DNA of 64,000 bases from an uncultured bacterium (GCA_964387845.1 CAYLXA010000001.1:1-64000); one strand, 5' to 3'; counted from the first letter of the stretch, positions 120 through 53,547 are shown. The notes: generated from the sequence alone by a model not told the origin. Translations and numbers: made by a program.

Positions 120-509
120 CTAGCGTGACAATTTTGAACCGGCTCTGCGCCGGCGGGTCTGTTTTGCCACTGAGGGACTTAGTGGCACGGCGCGCATTTG
201 GACGGTGTAGCCGACAAAGCGCAGGACTTTCTGGAGAGTTTCCATGCTCGTAAAATCGCCGCTTTCGATTTTGGAAAGGTGCTGCTGCGAAATCCCAAGT
301 TTCTGGGCAAGCTGCGCCTGCGTCAAGTCATGCTTATTGCGGTAATCGATGATCGGCAGAATGGTGTTTGTTTTCTGCCTTTCTAGCTCATAGAGTTCCC
401 TGAAGTGAGGATCTTTGAGTTCCTCTGCTAACCAATCATCTACTTTTATTAATTTGGGTTTCATTTTAGCCTCTACTTTGCAAATATGAATTCTTACGCT
501 GAACAGCAA
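120..509 (-). CDS. higA: HTH XRE-family antitoxin (HigA-like). The true start is probably near 467 (MKPKLIKV...)
   Basis: The translation has a helix-turn-helix, 'LTQAQLAQKLGISQQHLSKIESG'. It lies immediately downstream of, and overlaps, a RelE/ParE-type toxin ORF. Confidence 0.6.
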   Translation of the reverse strand: MLFSVRIHICKVEAKMKPKLIKVDDWLAEELKDPHFRELYELERQKTNTILPIIDYRNKHDLTQAQLAQKLGISQQHLSKIESGDFTSMETLQKVLRFVGYTVQMRAVPLSPSVAKQTRRRRAGSKLSR

Positions 510-762
510 TCACTTTCTCATGCAGCGGCAATTTATCCGTCTTTTTGATAAAACCGTTTGTAAAGATCACTTCTTCTCCTTTAAAGAAGAAATAAAGCAT
601 TCTCACAGCGCCTTCGTTGCCTGAAAATCTCAACTCAAAGATGCCGTCTCCCACATATTTTGCATAAGGCTCTTTGAGATCCCTGCCTCGATCTTCTAAC
701 AATCTCTTGATGTCAGAAAATTTGGTTCTTGTTCTTCGATCAAGTGACTTGATAAAGTCCAT
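466..762 (-). CDS. higB: RelE/ParE-superfamily toxin (HigB/Gp49-like). The ORF track extends to 816; the probable start is MDFIKSL.
   Basis: It contains 'DGIFELRF...RMLYFFFKGEEVIFTNGFIKKTDKLPLHE', typical of phage Gp49/HigB toxins. The toxin-first order with an HTH partner is typical of HigBA. Confidence 0.55.
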   Translation of the reverse strand: MDFIKSLDRRTRTKFSDIKRLLEDRGRDLKEPYAKYVGDGIFELRFSGNEGAVRMLYFFFKGEEVIFTNGFIKKTDKLPLHEKVIAVQRKNSYLQSRG

Positions 763-858
763 GGCGGGCGAACGGCCCGACGGCAGACAATAGAAATAGC
801 AAACTACTTTACTCACTGACAGCTCCTTTAAGTATACAACCAGATAGTTGTAAAGTCA

Positions 859-1835: not shown

Positions 1836-2135
1836 CTAGCCGCTAAATTGGATGGCAAGACGCGTCAAAATACCGACCACAAAATTATCCAGAAAACTAA
1901 TCGCCAGAAACGCAACGATGGGCGATAGGTCCAACATGCCGATCTGGAGCGGCAATTTACGAAACGGCGCCAAAATGGGGTCTGTCACCGCGTAGAGCGT
2001 GCTCACAAAGCCGCTGTAAGGATCCACCGAAAACCACGAAAGAATGATGCGGATCACGAGCAGAAAATACAGCACTTTAAAAATCATGCTGAATAAAAAC
2101 GCGAGACTCGAAAACAATTGCGCAGCAACAAACAT
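1836..2135 (-). CDS. yggT: YggT-family small membrane protein
   Basis: 99-aa hydrophobic protein in the conserved yggS–proC–yggT arrangement. Confidence 0.6.
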   Translation of the reverse strand: MFVAAQLFSSLAFLFSMIFKVLYFLLVIRIILSWFSVDPYSGFVSTLYAVTDPILAPFRKLPLQIGMLDLSPIVAFLAISFLDNFVVGILTRLAIQFSG

Positions 2136-2152: not shown

Positions 2153-2180
2153 GTACGGGCGAGGCATACCTCGCCCCTAC
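2153..2180. repeat. 28-nt palindromic repeat GTACGGGCGAGGCA(T/C)(A/G)CCTCGCCCCTAC, copy 1 (yggT/proC intergenic)
   Basis: Near-perfect 12-bp inverted repeat around a 4-nt centre. Four copies lie between 2153 and 5950. Confidence 0.8.
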
Positions 2181-2182
2181 GA

Positions 2183-2974
2183 TCACGAGCGCGATAATTC
2201 TTTCGCCCGCTTGACCGCTTTTTTCAATGCTTCTTCTACAATTTTGGGCAATTTTCTTTTGAACATCACTTTGAGCGCTGCGTCCGTCGTGCCTTTCTTC
2301 GAAGTGACGCGGGCACGCAGAACAGCCGGTGAGTCTTTCGCGCACGACGCGAGCTTCGCGGAGCCGAGCGCCGTTTGGATCGCGAGCTGGTTGGCTTGTG
2401 CTTCGGACAGTCCACTTTTTTTGGCGTAGCTAGCCAATAACTCCATCAATAAAAAGAAATACGCGGGGCCGCTGCCGCTCACGGCGGTCACTAAGTCTAA
2501 ATATTTTTCAGACGTTCGGATCACTTTGCCGCATGCGGAGAAAATCACTTCCGCTTTTTTTAATCCTTTTGCATCACCCGTCACAGCCGTCATCGATTCG
2601 CCGACAACCGCACCCAAATTCGGCATGGCGCGCACGACGGTGAAATTCTTACCCAAATGTTTTTTGATTTTCGAAACCGGCGTTCCGGCCAAAATAGAAA
2701 TCACGGTGTGACGTTTCGTTAAACCTGCTTTTAATTCCTTCGCAACATTCGCGAGCTCTTGTGGTTTAATCGCGAGAATCACGATACTTGAACTTTTAAG
2801 CACATCGCGATTGTTTCGCACTACGCGAACTCTATACCGCGAGAGATTTCTGGCGTAGGGATCGTGGACAAAAATCTGGCCGGGCGAAGCGAGCTTCTTC
2901 TGCAGAATTCCCTGCAAAATGCCGCCGCCCATGTTGCCGCAGCCGATAAATCCGATTTTTTGGTTTAACATCAT
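2183..2974 (-). CDS. proC: Pyrroline-5-carboxylate reductase
   Basis: 'IGFIGCGNMGGGIL' NAD(P)-binding N-terminus with ProC family similarity throughout. The start is placed at MMLNQK because the longer ORF runs into the palindromic repeat. Confidence 0.8.
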   Translation of the reverse strand: MMLNQKIGFIGCGNMGGGILQGILQKKLASPGQIFVHDPYARNLSRYRVRVVRNNRDVLKSSSIVILAIKPQELANVAKELKAGLTKRHTVISILAGTPVSKIKKHLGKNFTVVRAMPNLGAVVGESMTAVTGDAKGLKKAEVIFSACGKVIRTSEKYLDLVTAVSGSGPAYFFLLMELLASYAKKSGLSEAQANQLAIQTALGSAKLASCAKDSPAVLRARVTSKKGTTDAALKVMFKRKLPKIVEEALKKAVKRAKELSRS

Positions 2975-2986
2975 TTTTATCCTTCT

Positions 2987-3014
2987 GTGCGGGCGAGGCA
3001 TGCCTCGCCCCTAC
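2987..3014. repeat. 28-nt palindromic repeat, copy 2 (proC/yggS junction)
   Basis: gtgcgggcgaggcatgcctcgcccctac. Confidence 0.8.
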
Positions 3015-3700
3015 GTACGCGCTCCAAACACCGCGGTACCGATCCGGATTAAATTGGAACCTTCTTCGATTGCGATTTCAAAATCCGAGCTCATGCCCAT
3101 CGATAATATTTTGAAATCGGGCTTCGCCGTCTTCTTTATTTTTTCAAACAACTCTCTTAACATTTTAAATGAAGCACGTGTTTTTGTTGCGTCATCCGTC
3201 AAAGGCCCGATCGTCATCAGGCCTTTCAAAGCAAGCTGCGGCAAATTCAAAACCGCCTCCGCCAGCTTTTCGGCTTCGTTTGGCGCAACACCGAATTTCG
3301 TGTCTTCCCCGCTCGTATTGACCTGAATCAAGCAATCCACGATCTGGTCTTTCCGGGCAGCTTCTTTATTGATGGTGTTCGCCAGCTTCAAACTGTCGAC
3401 TGAATGAATCAGTACGGGCGAGGCATGCCTCGCCCCTACACAATATTTCACTTTGTTCGTCTGTAAATGCCCGATCAGGTGCCAGCGAATGTCATTCGGC
3501 AGTGCGCGGCTTTTTTCGCGCCATTCCTGGACCCGGTTTTCGCCAAAATCACGGCAGCCGAGCTTATACGCCTCCGAAATCACTTCCGCAGGAATTGTTT
3601 TGGTGACCAAAACCAATTGAATATCCTGAGCGCTTCGGCCTGAGCGTGCACGCGCAGCTTCAATCTTCTCCCTGAGAGTCTCTAAATTCTTGGCAATCAC
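3011..3700 (-). CDS. yggS: YggS-family PLP-binding homeostasis protein
   Basis: 229 aa. 'LVLVTKTIPAEVI', 'FGENRVQE', 'WHLIGHLQTNK', 'LSMGMSSDFEIAIEEGS..IRIGTAVFG' match the YggS/Alr-N-domain fold. Palindromic repeat copy 3 is translated in-frame inside it (VGARHASPVL). Confidence 0.8.
   Translation of the reverse strand: MIAKNLETLREKIEAARARSGRSAQDIQLVLVTKTIPAEVISEAYKLGCRDFGENRVQEWREKSRALPNDIRWHLIGHLQTNKVKYCVGARHASPVLIHSVDSLKLANTINKEAARKDQIVDCLIQVNTSGEDTKFGVAPNEAEKLAEAVLNLPQLALKGLMTIGPLTDDATKTRASFKMLRELFEKIKKTAKPDFKILSMGMSSDFEIAIEEGSNLIRIGTAVFGART
3413..3440. repeat. 28-nt palindromic repeat, copy 3, inside the yggS coding sequence
   Basis: gtacgggcgaggcatgcctcgcccctac at 3413-3440. The yggS reading frame continues through it. 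Confidence 0.8.
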
Positions 3701-3773
3701 AGAGGGACATTTTAGACAAGATTTTATCTGATGTCAATCTAACTGATTGCTGGAAAAAGACTTACAAATAGAT

Positions 3774-3868
3774 TTTCCCTCTCCCTCTGGGAGAGGGATC
3801 AAGGGTGAGGGATTTCAAATCTATCACCCTCATCCTAACCTTCTCCCTCTTCAGAGGGAGAAGGGATA
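3774..3868. repeat. CCCTCTCCC-type hairpin repeat pair (copy A), likely terminator region of the GldG-like gene
   Basis: 'tccctctccctctgggagagggatcaagggtgaggg' plus a perfect hairpin 'ccttctccctc-ttca-gagggagaagg'. It is homologous to 53490-53547. Confidence 0.6.
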
Positions 3869-3871
3869 ATG

Positions 3872-5914
3872 CTAAACCTTATTGAAAACGAGTTTAATAA
3901 ATCCACCTAACAGCAAAATAGCGGGAATAAAGAAAATAGAGACACTAAAGAGAATGGCGTGTTCAGAGCCGCTCAATATAAACGGTTCGCGGGACGACGG
4001 GCTGGCTTTAAATACAAATTTTTCATCCGGGCGCTCAGACATCAGCCATTTAACAATGATGACCAGAAAATCCCGATTCCCGAGCAGCTCAATCCGCGAA
4101 TTCACCAGCCAGTCGCTGTCGCCTATGACCGCCATTTTACCGCCCGACTTTTGCTCCTCCAGCGCGCACACAACCGCCACAGGGCCGGCGATATCTTCCT
4201 TTTCATTAAATTCGGCCTTATCATTTTCCAAATCTGTGAGATTCGTCTCTGCCCAGCTGCCCTTTCCGGTCCGCGCGATTTCGGTAATTTCGATATTGTC
4301 CGGAACGTTGAGGCGCTTGCGGACCGAGCGCGTGACGGGCATGATGACCGGCTTGGTAAAATTTTGGACGCTTGCGTGCGACCCAAAATCGGTGACAACC
4401 ATGGCAAGCTTCTCGACGCCTTGCAGTTGGCTGAATTTATCGATCATCACATTGCGCCCAAAATCAACGCCGAGTTCCCACAAAAACCGCCGGATGTGCT
4501 CGCCTTCTTTGGGAAAGACAGGGTCAACCGCAATCAAAACACTGCCGCCCGATTCAAAATGGCGGCGCAGAACCTCAATCTCATCGCGGCTTAAGTCCGA
4601 ATGCGGGCCGGCCAGCAAAATCAAATCTTGCGGATTCAAATCTTCAATGCGGGTCAAAACCGATTCCTGCAATTCATACCGCAGACTTTTGATTTTGGCC
4701 GCGAGGTTTTCATAGCCCATCTCATTTTGATCCGCGAGACTCGGCTCACCGTGCCCGATGGCAAAAAAAATCCGGCGTTCGCGTTTTTCCAGGAACGACG
4801 CGAGCGCGGCGGTAATTTTATTTTCATCCGGAAAACTGACCGTCATTTTTTTCCCTTTTGCTTCGACAATGGTCGCGCCGTAAGCGTCGACACGGTTTTC
4901 GAGCGCTTCCTCGGGATTTTGATCGGGATCGACGAGTTTGTACTTGAAGCCCGGCGCACGATAAGCGTATTCTTGGAGCACATTCTCAACATTTTTAAAA
5001 TTGACATCGCGGCGCGATAAAAACGCCGTGATTAAAATGGGGTCACGCCCGAATTGTTTTAAAACACCTTCGGTTTGTACGGAAAGAAGATTCTGGTTGG
5101 TGTCTGATAAATCAATCCGGCGTAAAAATTCGGGCGGCAATACGCAGAGCAGCGCAATCACGGCAAGGCTTGTGATGATCCGGCCGTTCGACTTTGATTT
5201 TTGCTTTTTGGCGTAAAAAAGTGTCCGGCTGAAAATAATCCAAACGCACACAGTGTAAATTAAAATCGCTTTGATATCTAAAATTCCCCGGCTGAATTCA
5301 CCGATAAGCGTAAACGGCAGCCATCTTTGGCCCGGCCACGTAAACTGACCGGCAAACCAAAGCAATCCGCACGTGAATAAAGACGCCAGAAAAGCTCTTT
5401 TCCGGTTTTTATCCGCGGCAGTGAAAAAAATCGAGCATGCAACGAACAAAACCGTGACCAACAGAACACCCAGAAAAGCCGATGCAAGCCGCCCGGAATC
5501 CAACCCGCCTTTCATGATCTGTAAAATAAAGAACCCAAGCGACGACGGCAGTAAAATCAAAATCGAAAACGAAAGTACGGTCAAATATTTTCCCGAAAGC
5601 GTTTTGCCGGCCGTCAACTTGATGAAAATCAGTTTTTGGCTTCGGTGAATAACCAAATCCGCCAGGATCGGAACCGCGATGACCAGCACCCACACCACAT
5701 TGACGAGGTGCGGATGGATGAGCGCCTGGTTCAGGTCAAAAAAGTAGTGTGGATCTTCGGCCAGCCGCTTCACGGAAAGTGCGTGCGCCACATACACATT
5801 GGTCCAAAACAGCATTCCTGTGATGAGCGTTCCCAAGATCAGGAACAAAAATTCAAAAAAGGATGATAACTGAAGGTTTAGAAAGGTCCGGGAAGTTTTT
5901 AGAATGGAACTCAT
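3872..5914 (-). CDS. Fused ABC-2-type permease-like N-terminal domain plus GldG-like ABC-transporter auxiliary domain membrane protein
   Basis: 680 aa. An N-terminal multi-TM segment is followed by a central region ('FFAIGHGEPSLADQNEMGYENLAAKI...LILLAGPHSDLSRDEIEVLRRHFESGGSVLIAVDP') matching the ABC_transp_aux/GldG pattern, with a C-terminal TM anchor. Confidence 0.5.
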   Translation of the reverse strand: MSSILKTSRTFLNLQLSSFFEFLFLILGTLITGMLFWTNVYVAHALSVKRLAEDPHYFFDLNQALIHPHLVNVVWVLVIAVPILADLVIHRSQKLIFIKLTAGKTLSGKYLTVLSFSILILLPSSLGFFILQIMKGGLDSGRLASAFLGVLLVTVLFVACSIFFTAADKNRKRAFLASLFTCGLLWFAGQFTWPGQRWLPFTLIGEFSRGILDIKAILIYTVCVWIIFSRTLFYAKKQKSKSNGRIITSLAVIALLCVLPPEFLRRIDLSDTNQNLLSVQTEGVLKQFGRDPILITAFLSRRDVNFKNVENVLQEYAYRAPGFKYKLVDPDQNPEEALENRVDAYGATIVEAKGKKMTVSFPDENKITAALASFLEKRERRIFFAIGHGEPSLADQNEMGYENLAAKIKSLRYELQESVLTRIEDLNPQDLILLAGPHSDLSRDEIEVLRRHFESGGSVLIAVDPVFPKEGEHIRRFLWELGVDFGRNVMIDKFSQLQGVEKLAMVVTDFGSHASVQNFTKPVIMPVTRSVRKRLNVPDNIEITEIARTGKGSWAETNLTDLENDKAEFNEKEDIAGPVAVVCALEEQKSGGKMAVIGDSDWLVNSRIELLGNRDFLVIIVKWLMSERPDEKFVFKASPSSREPFILSGSEHAILFSVSIFFIPAILLLGGFIKLVFNKV

Positions 5915-5922
5915 GTTATTTT

Positions 5923-5950
5923 GTACGGGCGAGGCACGCCTCGCCCCTAC
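5923..5950. repeat. 28-nt palindromic repeat, copy 4 (tyrS / GldG-like intergenic)
   Basis: gtacgggcgaggcacgcctcgcccctac. Confidence 0.8.
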
Positions 5951-7170
5951 TTAAGACTGACGCGGGCAAACTTGCGCTTGCCGCATTGCACAATCACCGC
6001 CGGATCGAGCGCAAAACTGGATTCCGGCGACTCGACTTTTGATTTATTGACTTTGACGCCGCCCTGCTCGACTAAGCGGCGGCCTTCGCTTTTGCTCGCC
6101 ACGAGGCCGGCTTCTTTGAGAAGGTTCACGATATCGATTTTGCCGTTTTGAAGCAAACTTTTAGAAATTTTCACTTCTTCAATTTCATCCGGCATTTCTT
6201 TATTCTTGAATACCTGATCGAACTGGTCGCTCGCTTTTCCGGCAGCGTCTTTTCCGTAATAAATCGTGATAATGTCACGCGCCAGCTGGGCTTTCGCGTT
6301 GCGCGGATTGGTTTCGATTTCTTTGGCGCTGATTTTACTGGAAGTTAAATACTGGAAATATTTGGCAATGAGCGGATCCGGAATCGACATCACTTTTCCG
6401 AACATTTGATCCGGCGCATCCTGCAAAGCAATGTGATTCGAGAGTGATTTGGACATTTTCTGTTTGCCGTCCAAGCCTTCAATGATCGGAAGCGTCATCA
6501 CGACTTGCGGCTCCTGGCCGTAATCGCGCTGAAGTTCACGGCCCACAAGCAGATTGAATTTCTGATCGGTGCCGCCAAGCTCGACATCGGCCTTCAAAGC
6601 AACGGAATCGTAGCCCTGCATCAAGGGATACAGAAATTCCAGAATCGTGATCGGTTGCTTGTCGTCGTAGCGCTTCTTAAAATCATCGCGCTCCAAAATC
6701 CGCGCGACGGTGTATTTAGACGTGAGCGCTAGAAAATCCGCAGGCTTCAAAGCATCCAGCCATTTGGAATTGTAAACCACTTCGACATTTTTATTTTTAT
6801 CGAGAATTTTGAAGACTTGTGCTTGATACGTTTCCGCGTTTTTCTTGATCTCTGCTTCCGAAAGCGGCTTGCGGGTTTCCGAACGGTGCGACGGATCGCC
6901 GATACGCGCCGTAAAATCGCCGATCAGAAAGACGATCGTGTGGCCGAGCTCCTGAAGCGCTTTGAGTTTGCGGAGCGGAACCGTGTGGCCCAAATGCAAA
7001 TCCGGAGCCGAAGGGTCGGCGCCGTATTTGATCCGGAGTGGTTTGCCGCGTTCAAGCTTCTTCAGCAAATCGGCTTCGGAAATCAGGTCGACTGTATTTT
7101 CTTTGAATATTTTGAGCTGGTCTTGGGGCTTCATAGTGTTAAGTTTACAGAAATCAACCGCGCGATTCAA
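5947..7170 (-). CDS. tyrS: Tyrosyl-tRNA synthetase (true start possibly 7134, MKPQDQL)
   Basis: Class I 'HLGH' and 'KMSKS' motifs, with a C-terminal S4-like domain. Confidence 0.9.
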
Positions 7171-27039: not shown

Positions 27040-27215
27040 CAAAGATCGTGGCGGATCCGCTAAGCAGTGTGGCGGAGGTAAACTAACTGAAAAGTTGGGG
27101 CGCAAAGCAAGAGGTCCGAAATGAAATTAAAAGGATGGCTCGGCTGCCGAAATTCATATTCAGAATTTGGAATAAACGCCCGTACTTTTTAGTACGGGCG
27201 TTTATGTTTTTATGG
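27040..27215 (+). promoter_or_regulatory. Candidate c-di-GMP-I (GEMM) riboswitch with an intrinsic-terminator expression platform in the 5' leader of the pilin-like gene
   Basis: 27071-27106 'GGCGGAGGUAAACU-AACU-GAAA-AGUU-GGGGCGCAAAGC' matches the GEMM core 'GGCAAACC-stem-GNRA-stem-GGGACGCAAAGCC' with identical spacing. A 13-bp perfect hairpin plus U-tract sits at 27174-27212, and the ATG is at 27226. Confidence 0.5.
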
Positions 27216-27225
27216 AGAAAAACGG

Positions 27226-28218
27226 ATGAAGCAAAAAAAGTTGGGTGTAACGCTGGTTGAAATCATGATTGTGGTTGCCATCATCGGTATAGTGGCAGCA
27301 TTCGCAATCCCCAACTATCTACGTTCAAGGCAAACAGCCGATACCGCTTCTTTGGAACAAACCGCACGTCAGATTGCGCAAAAAATGGAACAAATTTTCT
27401 GGGGCCAGAATCCAAACGAATATCCGCCGGAATTGTCGATGCCTTCCGGGCTTGTCACGTGGGCTGCGCCAACCAACTTGGGCAATATTCAAGATTTGCT
27501 TGAATTGCTCAAGAAAATTTGTGAACAACAGGGTAAAAGCTTGTCATCCGGCCAAATCGGAGATTTGACGGCCTCTGAAATTGCTGCCGATCCCGAAGCC
27601 ATGCAAGCGCTCGTTGAAACTTGTTTCCAGAACAATCCGCCACTAACATACACAACACCGGCCGGCGGACAAACCTATTTATTTTCTGTGTCATCACCCA
27701 ATGGAACCAACTACACGGCAAGCCCGGGCGGCGTCAGCCAAACGCCTCCCGATTGCACCGGTGATGCCGGATGCGATGACGGTGTTTATTGCAATGGTGT
27801 TGAAACCTGCCAGTACGGAAGCTGCCAGGCCGGAATTAGTCCGTGCGACGAAGGATATACCTGCCACGAATCTTATCAGGAATGTACTGAGGGCATCTGC
27901 GGAAACGGTATTTGGGAAGGTTATGAAGAATGCGGTGAAGAAGATACGGGATTTAGTTATGAATTCATGGAATGCATTAATTGCCGCTGGGAATTCGTCG
28001 GCTGCCCAGAGGGTTACTATTTCTACGACTGGGCATGCTATCCATCGCCGCCCGACTGCCCATCAGGCTCTTACAAACAACCCGGTCTCGGATGCTGTTG
28101 GCCCGATCCCGGCATGCCGCCGTGGCCAAGACCTATTCAACTGCCTACTTGCGGAGAAGTCGCTGAAGTAATCCCGGATGGCGGCGGGCCCCCTCCGATG
28201 GACGACCCGTCATTTTAA
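27226..28218 (+). CDS. Prepilin-type (GspG/type IV pilin-like) protein with a large Cys-rich C-terminal domain
   Basis: N-terminal 'KKLGVTLVEIMIVVAIIGIVAAFAIPNY' class III signal/methylation motif. The C-terminal 160 aa contain about 30 Cys in CGNG..E.CGE-type repeats (myxobacterial Cys-rich-repeat-like). Confidence 0.75.
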   Translation: MKQKKLGVTLVEIMIVVAIIGIVAAFAIPNYLRSRQTADTASLEQTARQIAQKMEQIFWGQNPNEYPPELSMPSGLVTWAAPTNLGNIQDLLELLKKICEQQGKSLSSGQIGDLTASEIAADPEAMQALVETCFQNNPPLTYTTPAGGQTYLFSVSSPNGTNYTASPGGVSQTPPDCTGDAGCDDGVYCNGVETCQYGSCQAGISPCDEGYTCHESYQECTEGICGNGIWEGYEECGEEDTGFSYEFMECINCRWEFVGCPEGYYFYDWACYPSPPDCPSGSYKQPGLGCCWPDPGMPPWPRPIQLPTCGEVAEVIPDGGGPPPMDDPSF

Positions 28219-29525: not shown

Positions 29526-30779
29526 TTGCACATGAAAACTTCAAAAAAATATGGTTTAACGCTGGTTGAAATTGTGATTGTGGTAGCGCTCATCGCACTT
29601 GTTTCAATGATCGCAATTCCCAACTTTATGCGCAACCATCAAACCGCCAATTCACAATCTTTTGCTCAAACCATTAAACAAATTGCCCAGAAACTGGAGT
29701 TGATATTCTGGGGCCAGAACCCAAACGAATATCCGCCCGTATCCGCCTTTACAAACGGCCTGCAAACCTGGGCAGCGCCTACGAACCTCGGAAACATCGA
29801 GGATTTGGAGCGGCTTCTTCAAAAAGCATGTGAAGAAATTCTAAAACAAAATTTCAGCGCGGCTTCTCTCAACGATCAAACAGTATTTGCCCAGGAACTC
29901 TTTAATTGCCTTGACGGGCATGTGATTGATTATATTGTCACCGAAGACTTACAAAATTATTGGTTTAATTTTGCGGATCCATACACGACCGGCTATTACA
30001 GCATCGGAAATGGTTTTAGCGAACCTAAATACAACGATCCCGTAGTGCCGGCTCCTCCGCCTCCTCCGCCGCCAGCTTGCGGAAACGGCATTGCTGACGC
30101 AGGAGAGTTTTGCGGCGAGCCCCAATTTCCGGGCTGTCACGCAGGTACAACCTGCATTAACTGTCAATGCGAAGCAATAGCAGGCTGTGGTGGCTTCTCA
30201 GGAGGAAGCTGTAATCCTAATTTTCCATCTACCTGTCCGCCCGGATATTCTTGCCATGCACAATGCCGCCAATGCGTGTTCAATAATTGGAACCCTACCG
30301 GGGGCGGCAGCTGTTTTGTCGGTGATACGCAAATTTTGATGACGGACGGAAGCACAAAAGCCATTAGCGATATTCAGGTAGGCGATCAAGTCGCCAGCTA
30401 TAATGAAGAAACTAAAACGGTGGTAGTATCAAAGGTTGATAAATTACTAATCCACGATCCGGAAATTTATTGGATCATCAACGATCGAATCAAAGTAACG
30501 CCGAACCACAGCTTTTATATTGACGGAAAATGGAAGCATATTGGACAAGCTGAGCTGGGTGACAACATGCTCAAGCATGACGGAAATCAGGAAGCTATTG
30601 TAAAAATGGAACTAATTACTATTAAAGAACCTATTTACAACTTGGAAATTCAGGACACGCACACCTACTATGCGGAAGGGGTCTTGGTACATAATGCAAT
30701 CAAGGGGTATACTCCCGGTTGGACGCATGGAAACATGGACGGAATTGAAGCGCCGGACGGTGATGGGGACGGCGGTTGA
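29526..30779 (+). CDS. Prepilin-type (GspG-like) protein with a Pro-run, a Cys-rich module and a C-terminal Hint (intein-like/BIL) autoprocessing domain
   Basis: N-terminus 'KKYGLTLVEIVIVVALIALVSMIAIPNF', paralogous to 27226. The Hint domain lies at nt 30312-30695. Confidence 0.75.
   Translation: MHMKTSKKYGLTLVEIVIVVALIALVSMIAIPNFMRNHQTANSQSFAQTIKQIAQKLELIFWGQNPNEYPPVSAFTNGLQTWAAPTNLGNIEDLERLLQKACEEILKQNFSAASLNDQTVFAQELFNCLDGHVIDYIVTEDLQNYWFNFADPYTTGYYSIGNGFSEPKYNDPVVPAPPPPPPPACGNGIADAGEFCGEPQFPGCHAGTTCINCQCEAIAGCGGFSGGSCNPNFPSTCPPGYSCHAQCRQCVFNNWNPTGGGSCFVGDTQILMTDGSTKAISDIQVGDQVASYNEETKTVVVSKVDKLLIHDPEIYWIINDRIKVTPNHSFYIDGKWKHIGQAELGDNMLKHDGNQEAIVKMELITIKEPIYNLEIQDTHTYYAEGVLVHNAIKGYTPGWTHGNMDGIEAPDGDGDGG
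30312..30695 (+). other. Hint/intein-like domain (blocks A, B, F, G) inside the pilin-like CDS
   Basis: The intein/Hint splicing blocks are present: 'CFVGDTQILMTDGS', 'TPNH' (TxxH), '...YNLEIQDTHTYYAEGVLVHN'. No endonuclease domain is present, and the +1 residue is Ala. Confidence 0.75.
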
Positions 30780-53489: not shown

Positions 53490-53547
53490 TCTAATCATCC
53501 CTCACCCTTCCCTCTCCCTGTGGGAGAGGGATAAAGGGAGAGGGTTT
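53490..53547. repeat. CCCTCTCCC-type hairpin repeat (copy B)
   Basis: 'ccctctccctgtgggagagggataaagggagagggttttt' is homologous to 3785-3830. Confidence 0.6.

Follow-up and report, generated by a model that had tools for sequence, protein, structure and literature searches.

Four copies of a putative GTAG-tagged repetitive extragenic palindrome in the tyrS to yggT gene string of an Omnitrophota-like bacterium

We analysed a stretch of 64,000 nucleotides from an Omnitrophota-like metagenome-assembled genome (MAG) of an uncultured bacterium (GCA_964387845.1 CAYLXA010000001.1:1-64000; hereafter the window, meaning the whole stretch), in which a 28-nt unit including a perfect 20-nt palindrome recurs at four sites among the genes tyrS to yggT. 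We take the four palindromes to be copies of a GTAG-tagged repetitive extragenic palindrome (REP), of the type that belongs with subclass 2.4 of the REP transposases (TnpAREP), equivalent to group 4 of the REP-associated tyrosine transposases (RAYTs), and in form "canonical long / near double-foot"; the probability of this assignment we put at about 0.82. GTAG REPs that donate a TAG stop codon, lie within genes or occur in clusters have already been described, and the Omnitrophota-like host lineage is newly added here.

A pattern search of the 64 kb, allowing up to three mismatches, returned four copies, all in the same orientation (Table 1), and 100 dinucleotide-preserving shuffles gave no chance match to the 28-mer. 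An earlier reading of the window, made from the sequence alone (the sequence-only reading), had reported a palindrome at four sites in 4 kb; the search confirms this, apart from the third site, which starts at 3412 and not at 3413. On the minus (coding) strand every copy consists of GTAG, the perfect palindrome GGGCGAGGCATGCCTCGCCC and GTAC, the last being GCAC once. The consensus is GTAG-GGGCGAGG(C/T)(A/G)TGCCTCGCCC-G(T/C)AC, with variation confined to two central loop bases (giving the loops CATG, CGTG and TATG) and one tail base. The same reading had stated that the copies are clustered and that the rest of the window holds no other, and both statements hold: the window has no fifth copy of the 28-mer with three or fewer mismatches, a scan for perfect hairpins (stem of at least 8 bp) revealed no other GC-rich hairpin of GTAG type in it, and all four copies fall within 3.8 kb, spaced 834, 425 and 2511 nt from start to start, the closest neighbours being 397 nt apart. 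Uniform placement would give such a cluster with P ~4x(3.8/64)^3 ~8e-4, a post hoc figure obtained by hand arithmetic.

Membership in the GTAG-tagged REPs is marked by the tetranucleotide GT[AG]G at the foot of the hairpin, which all four copies carry as GTAG; the REPs that RAYTs recognise are built in this way, with the tag abutting a GC-rich hairpin (PMC2817692, PMC8266576). The stem foot, GGGCG/CGCCC, is the G-C foot of the subclass 2.4 type, and the tail, GTAC or GCAC, is one base off CTAC. REPs of this subclass are long, with three G-C foot pairs or a "double foot", are found in frame inside the transposase gene, and have a patchy spread over many phyla (PMC6006769). In the notation used here for variants, that of the window has the core GAGGCATGCCTC in the hairpin frame GTAG-GGGCG-N10-CGCCC.

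All genes neighbouring the copies lie on the minus strand, in the order tyrS, a GldG-like gene, yggS, proC and yggT. Three of the four copies sit 0-2 nt from a stop codon, directly 3' of open reading frames (ORFs) in this unidirectional gene string, which supports the earlier suggestion of REP-like elements at typical REP positions. Features that had gone unmentioned there are the 5' GTAG tag on the coding strand, the stop codons of tyrS and yggS, both supplied by the copies, and membership in a REP family that spans phyla and has an identifiable type of cognate transposase. The Shine-Dalgarno sequence of proC (AGAAGGA) follows directly on copy 3, and that of yggT (AAAGGA) lies 6 nt downstream of copy 4. 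A near-consensus sigma-70-like promoter (11/12) stands upstream of yggS and is kept in four related loci (L121, L122, L273 and L123); it suggests that yggS-proC-yggT is a separate transcription unit, and with such a promoter the yggS-proC-yggT transcript probably includes copies 2-4, and a tyrS-gldG transcript copy 1.

Synteny is kept in five related genomes, represented by L273, L121 (the same species as L272), L122 and L123/L270, the last two probably being one genome, since both come from one sample. A tree built on TyrS and GldG identities groups the window with L273 and L121/L272 with L122, leaving L123/L270 outside; the site patterns are 62 AABB, 21 ABAB and 11 ABBA. Comparison of filled and empty sites among these genomes shows that the copies are insertions. 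At the tyrS stop, the window (centre AGGCG/TGCCT) and L121/L272 (centre TATCG/CGATA) are filled, in an identical 5' context, and L273 and L122 are empty, their spacers being homologous to each other. In the YggS loop, the window and L273 have a copy, L121/L272 have another variant 9 nt downstream (PVGAYGNTPL), and L122 and L123 are empty. At the yggS stop, the TAG of a REP tag is found in the window and, from another variant, in L123, with L122 empty; the proC/yggT junction, where copy 4 lies, is empty in L123. Within proC, L272 has two in-frame copies and L122 a third variant in the loop that holds the first of these, both places being empty in the window and in L123.

Ten copies from the related genomes were compared. 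The five foot pairs (GGGCG/CGCCC) are invariant, the three upper pairs change only on both sides, and 100% of the cells are paired. L272, like the window, has four copies in one part of its sequence, namely in 3.3 kb of the same operon, with none in its other 18 kb. Among more distant Omnitrophota, L275-L277 included, no GC-rich hairpins are present in the same operon. As a separate observation, the yggS stop of L121 (10695-10757) and L272 (13935-14100) lies in GTAG, followed by another widespread repeat, of GTCATTGCGAAGC...GAAGCAATCTC type with hairpins and without the GGGCG hairpin.

The copy inside yggS is translated. The reading frame across it is NKVKYCVGARHASPVLIHSVDS, and alignment with other YggS proteins, 24 in all, sets CVG-ARHASPV-LIHS of the window against the consensus NKVKxCVG-xxx-LIHSVDS. 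This loop has three residues in 21 of the 23 other homologues and seven in the window, the exceptions being P0002 and P0014, the latter with a 6-aa insert at this place; alignment with E. coli YggS (PDB 1W8G, E 1e-41) likewise gives the window protein four additional residues. The sequence-only reading had a copy read in frame within a YggS loop, which agrees with the absence of the copy from the loop in 22 of the 23 aligned homologues. It had further taken the segment VGARHASPVL for a 10-aa insertion. An insertion it is, of another size: 27 nt stand in place of 15 nt, for a net gain of 4 aa; native residues have been replaced, and V, G and L occupy ancestral positions. All invariant YggS columns are kept in the window protein, and an AlphaFold2 model (mean predicted local distance difference test score 93.7, about 82 over the ARHASPV loop) places the insert in a surface loop between helix 81-87 and strand 97-101, where it is probably neutral. 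The window sequence was assembled independently in Logan (L124), and that assembly has the in-gene copy as well; in another sample, the contig of a closely related genome (L273, TyrS 96% identical) stops within the copy, at the identical codon.

The link to a transposase comes from other genomes. Six-frame ORFs of all fetched loci were searched with E. coli RayT, two RAYTs found among these loci, and a hidden Markov model of 120 homologues, and three RAYT-like genes were found, in L172, L085 and L048 (Table 1). The first of these forms a REPtron between panB and panC, in which a forward REP (GTAG...GCAC) stands ahead of a 164-aa gene, a second forward REP ends that gene with its TAG, and a third copy, inverted, is in frame just past the HUH motif and encodes RARHASPLQ. 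The arrangement in L085 is the same, with a protein above the Pfam Y1_Tnp threshold and the in-frame peptide VGARRASPV. Homologues of the L172 RAYT number 4773, many of them named "REP element-mobilizing transposase RayT." Between the HUH motif and the next helix, most of the best 120 of these have a peptide encoded by a REP, of VGA(R/T)HASP type or similar, the search being of the word-index type, which favours matches sharing that peptide. Some of these 120 closest homologues carry two or three in-frame REP copies. E. coli RayT is distant from the RAYTs found with the REP 24-mer (phmmer E 4e-5 and 2e-3). The RAYT association is shown for the REP family in other genomes and not for the genome of the window.

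This family is widespread. The exact 24-mer GGGCGAGGCAYRCCTCGCCCCTAC occurs at 120 or more loci of a species-representative genome collection, and record titles place its hosts, among the matches listed, in well over a dozen phyla, including Chloroflexota, Latescibacterota, Acidobacteriota, Cyanobacteria, Proteobacteria, Actinomycetota, Bacteroidota, Planctomycetota, Verrucomicrobiota, Deinococcota and Gemmatimonadota. Both isolate genomes (Erwinia rhapontici, Pelotalea chapellei and Planktothrix among them) and long-read genomes are represented. The 28-mer with a GYAC tail, as in the window, is present in at least 120 metagenome contigs, the 24-mer is found in 23 viral contigs of IMG/VR, and near-identical copies reside on a plasmid of Erwinia aphidicola and the megaplasmid of Thermomicrobium roseum. 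Both feet (GTAG ... CTAC) are present in 30 of 166 copies from other genomes. Identity of the 24-mer across phyla is largely accounted for by two circumstances: only about five palindromic positions are free within the conserved frame, and subclass 2.4 RAYTs are patchily distributed, presumably by horizontal gene transfer. A search of paper full texts for the 20-mer found no match.

The orientation of tag and tail was surveyed over single-tag copies in about 240 fetched loci, with ORFs of at least 150 codons. It is the tag that faces the ORF end in 98 copies, against the tail in 40, and in 40 of the 98 the TAG of the tag is the stop codon, every other distance being represented by five copies at most. 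Taken over long ORFs, closure by the tag TAG stands at 16%, against a background of 11% for any GTAG, a comparison that says little, because GC-rich genomes have many spurious long frames. About 50 copies in these loci are read through in long frames, among them real genes in the isolate Pelotalea, one methylase-like gene and one DnaG-like gene. Tandem blocks of the same REP with flanking DNA were seen in L097 (7210-7500, Erwinia rhapontici chromosome) and L068 (370-880, an Anaerolineales MAG), with periods of about 62 nt and about 94 nt; at first sight these are CRISPR-like, but the "spacers" are identical.

The closest published relatives are the GTAG REPs, described as a GTAG tag on a GC-rich stem-loop of 20-40 bp, in a superfamily that includes the SMAG elements of Stenotrophomonas (Di Nocera, De Gregorio, Rocco 2013, PMC3733652). 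In that account, so far as it is drawn on here, the elements mostly follow ORFs closely where neighbouring genes run in one direction, "often provide the stop codon (TAG)", and in several species may lie wholly inside an ORF, in frame; some families form clusters, some are common to distant taxa, and different REPs occupy about the same recB site in two Xanthomonas species. The window copies share its tag, size, positions, stop-codon donation and in-frame intragenic occurrence, and differ from it in the host, an Omnitrophota-like MAG of a phylum absent from the portions used here, and in being singlets in direct orientation only. The T. roseum match hints at family GTAG-23; the window REP was not matched to any of the 24 numbered families in the portions of that source used here. 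Subclass 2.4 REPs (Quentin, Siguier, Chandler, Fichant 2018, PMC6006769; RAYT group 4 of Bertels et al. 2017) resemble them in the long perfect stem with three or more G-C foot pairs, in the same REP flanking the transposase gene and lying in frame between its HUH and Tyr motifs (L172, L085), in the "double foot" (5' GTAG ... 3' CTAC) of many genomes and in the patchy distribution over phyla; the window copies differ in their GTAC or GCAC tail, which is not a perfect CTAC foot, and in that no cognate transposase gene was found in the 64 kb.

Likeness to other systems is partial. E. coli REPs, with their BIMEs and RayT (YafM), share the GTAG tag and hairpin, a Y1 transposase partner and the proximity to stop codons; their stems are imperfect and bulged, and they are usually paired in alternating orientation. 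REPINs (Bertels and Rainey 2011) are similarly REP-derived, RAYT-dependent and non-autonomous, but consist of two inverted REPs with a short spacer, whereas the window copies are direct and lie 425-2511 nt apart from start to start. The sequence-only reading had compared the yggS copy with Rickettsia palindromic elements (RPEs). These too are palindromic repeats in frame within genes, where they add a surface peptide, and in that property the comparison stands. As to family it is an analogy only, for a 28-nt GTAG-tagged unit with a RAYT link belongs with the GTAG REPs. The classical RPE-1 type far exceeds 28 nt in length. RPEs are called "longer palindromic insertions" in PMC3733652, which, in the portions used, files only the short RPE-4 and RPE-6 with the tagged REPs. 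A CRISPR array was considered for the window copies and rejected, given their irregular spacing and the housekeeping genes between them.

Folded as RNA, each copy forms an 8-bp stem with a tetraloop, lengthened by GUA/UAC pairing. Free energies of the four hairpins run from -18.9 kcal/mol (copy 3) to -25.9 kcal/mol (copy 4), with copy 1 at -22.1 kcal/mol (z -4.9), and 0-5 of 200 shuffles fold as well. A role in mRNA stability or attenuation, by analogy with E. coli REPs, is plausible. In E. coli, translation is lowered by REPs closer than 16 nt to a stop codon (Liang, Rudd, Deutscher 2015, as cited in PMC12306157).

In the mechanism that we propose, the REP would be a short non-autonomous element whose hairpin in single-stranded DNA, with its 5' GTAG tag, would be recognised and processed by an HUH/Y1 transposase (RAYT/TnpAREP). 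A RAYT of the subclass 2.4 type acting on single-stranded DNA would have generated the copies; the cognate gene presumably lies elsewhere in the genome, whose REPs it would mobilise. Only places that tolerate a 28-nt insert would have received, or retained, such copies: the stops of tyrS, yggS and proC and, with the frame kept, a surface loop of YggS. The + strand has a negative GC skew over the whole window, so that the tag strand is the G-rich strand and would be expected to template the lagging strand, as in relatives of IS200/IS605. In mRNA, hairpins of -19 to -26 kcal/mol would form, would block 3'-5' exonucleases by analogy with the E. coli REPs, and may affect initiation at the Shine-Dalgarno sites of proC and yggT, 0-6 nt downstream.

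Several observations weigh against this account. RAYT genes are absent from the 64-kb window and from the syntenic loci of the relatives. Only four copies are visible in the window, all within 3.8 kb, where GTAG REPs normally number tens to hundreds per genome, and all are direct singlets, not the inverted pairs (REPIN/BIME) that are held to be the mobile unit in Pseudomonas and E. coli. Copies within genes bring net gains of +12, +21, +15 and +9 nt, never 28, which does not fit simple cut-and-paste and means that native sequence was lost each time. A "tag-first" scheme, with a 24-nt unit placed 3' of a native GTAG and so automatically in frame, was rejected on the same gains, which fit neither 24 nor 28 nt. 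The effects of the hairpins on expression in this operon are putative and drawn by analogy.

It is possible, though we judge it the less likely account, that the host keeps the hairpins mainly as operon punctuation that sets the expression of tyrS, yggS, proC and yggT, by protection of mRNA 3' ends, stalling of ribosomes at the stop codon or occlusion of the next ribosome-binding site, their mobile origin being secondary. This overlaps with the assignment to mobile REPs and differs from it only in what maintains the copies. The three intergenic copies, each close to a stop and just upstream of the next start region, would suit such a role, as would the sense orientation and stability of all the hairpins, the effect of stop-proximal REPs on translation in E. 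coli, and the presence in relatives of a REP at the same junctions, in a differing variant with the stem always compensated. Yet L273, L122 and the distant L275-L277 run the same operon without a hairpin at these junctions, the copy within a coding sequence is unlikely to have such a role, and unrelated contexts in many phyla hold the same sequence. The last point also makes it very improbable that the palindromes are operators for a dimeric regulator, or intrinsic terminators or attenuators, which perfect 20-bp palindromes at gene boundaries might otherwise recall: identical sequence stands in hundreds of unrelated contexts, also beside RAYT genes, one copy is within an ORF, and the copy region has no match in Rfam. 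A terminator scan made no call at any of the four copies, and none is followed by a T-run (tails GTACAAAAUAAC, GUACUGAUUC, GCACAGAAGG and GUACAUACGA). Sequencing or assembly artefact, which the sequence-only reading had raised, or a chimera, we regard as ruled out. Contigs of related assemblies (L124, L122, L273) do tend to end at these repeats; the same copies are nevertheless present in both the window and L124 assemblies, reading frames are intact, the in-gene copy recurs in the other sample (L273), and the family is found in isolate and long-read genomes.

How different variants come to share positions bears on the mode of insertion. A possibility that we hold less likely than not is that integration is targeted at a GT[AG]G tag or an older REP, or that a resident REP is overwritten in place, its variable upper stem being converted to the variant currently active in the genome, as opposed to chance insertion followed by selection. 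The tyrS stop speaks for this, filled with different 10-nt centres in the window and L121/L272 and empty in their sisters, as do the ProC loop, with different variants in L272 and L122, and the YggS loop, filled 9 nt apart. Four-copy clusters are found in the same operon in two species, and the native YggS codons at the loop, GTG GG or GTA GG, make a ready GT[AG]G tag. The last 100 nt of tyrS have an excess of ABAB sites, shared by the window and L121, which hints weakly at a shared filled allele; with 4 unforced sites against 1.6 expected, the excess is not significant. The argument is drawn from a handful of sites in six genomes, recurrence is partly expected where a compact operon offers few permissive positions, and in E. 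coli and Stenotrophomonas the tag is a recognition or guide sequence, with cleavage at CT dinucleotides and not at the tag (PMC8266576). Targeted integration, in-place overwriting and a scarcity of permissive sites are three candidate readings of the same-position variants. A wider description, in which GTAG REPs of this Omnitrophota clade are site-faithful and sequence-fluid, with a constant tag and GGGCG foot, a changing but compensated upper stem and reoccupation of the same positions in one conserved operon, at the tyrS and yggS stops and the YggS and ProC loops, is one that we offer with comparable reserve. If true, site-faithful swapping of variants would be a homing or conversion step new to the RAYT/REP model.

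For annotation, the peptides "VGARHASP", "GRGMPRPY" and "RGEACLAP", together with many short hypothetical ORFs in metagenome-derived genomes, are REP read-throughs, and stop codons at such junctions are derived from the element. The documented range of REPs of the subclass 2.4 type is extended to an Omnitrophota-like lineage. Filled and empty sites in six related genomes, with in-frame copies in YggS and ProC and variants at identical positions, constitute a compact natural experiment, and their comparison could help to explain how single REPs insert and why copies within a genome stay homogeneous.

Table 1. Positions of the REP copies, the neighbouring genes and related features (in the window unless a locus is named)
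Feature	Position	Strand	Remarks
REP copy 1	5923..5950	-	GTAG GGGCGAGGCGTGCCTCGCCC GTAC; tyrS/gldG-like junction; TAG at 5949-5947 is the tyrS stop
REP copy 2	3412..3439	-	Inside yggS, in frame as V-G-A-R-H-A-S-P-V(-L)
REP copy 3	2987..3014	-	Tail GCAC; yggS/proC junction; TAG at 3013-3011 is the yggS stop
REP copy 4	2153..2180	-	Loop UAUG; proC/yggT junction; begins 2 nt past the proC stop TGA
tyrS (tyrosine-tRNA ligase)	5947..7134	-	Pfam PF00579, PF01479 and PF22421 on the identical protein P0241; ended by REP copy 1
GldG-like ABC-transporter auxiliary gene	3872..5914	-	PF09822 ABC_transp_aux
Sigma-70-like promoter	3709..3737	-	TTGACA-17-TAAAAT; directly upstream of yggS
yggS (pyridoxal phosphate homeostasis protein)	3011..3700	-	Ala_racemase_N fold; E. 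coli YggS 1W8G; contains copy 2, ended by copy 3
proC (pyrroline-5-carboxylate reductase)	2183..2974	-	PF03807, PF14748
yggT-family membrane protein gene	1836..2135	-	74% identity to the L123 gene carrying PF02325
In-frame proC REP copies, L272	14368-14395, 14545-14572		Variants differ between genomes
In-frame proC REP copy, L122	10929-10957		Variants differ between genomes
RAYT gene, L172	4025-4556		Same REP flanking and in frame after HUH motif
RAYT gene, L085	847-1473		Same REP flanking and in frame after HUH motif
RAYT gene, L048	4813-5178		Same REP flanking and in frame after HUH motif

Other repeats were noted nearby. A second, unrelated GC-rich hairpin repeat, TCCCTCTCCC-NNN-GGGAGAGGGA with a CCTTCTCCCTCT/AGAGGGAGAAGG hairpin, is present at 3776-3798 and 3839-3864, in the gldG/yggS spacer, and once 50 kb away, at 53509-53531; the same motif is found in L273 (5042), L122 (4563) and L123 (3834), and the window copy at 3798..3776(-) was flagged as terminator-like. 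Between yggT and the next gene, on the minus strand, lie twin mini-palindromes, GGGGACTGTCCC-AATT-GGGACTGTCCCC (1790-1830), which may be a short repeat family or a terminator.

Elsewhere in the window, two small overlapping ORFs at 120-816 (-), upstream of a gene resembling purine nucleoside phosphorylase, resemble a toxin-antitoxin pair (a helix-turn-helix/Xre-like protein and a small partner), as judged from translations only. A c-di-GMP-I riboswitch (Rfam, 52.8 bits; 27067-27151) is followed by a hairpin with a 15-bp stem and a T-run (27172-27205) and then by a pilin-like N-terminal coding segment (27234-27433), of which a duplicate with 73-74% identity lies 2.3 kb downstream (29543-29742).

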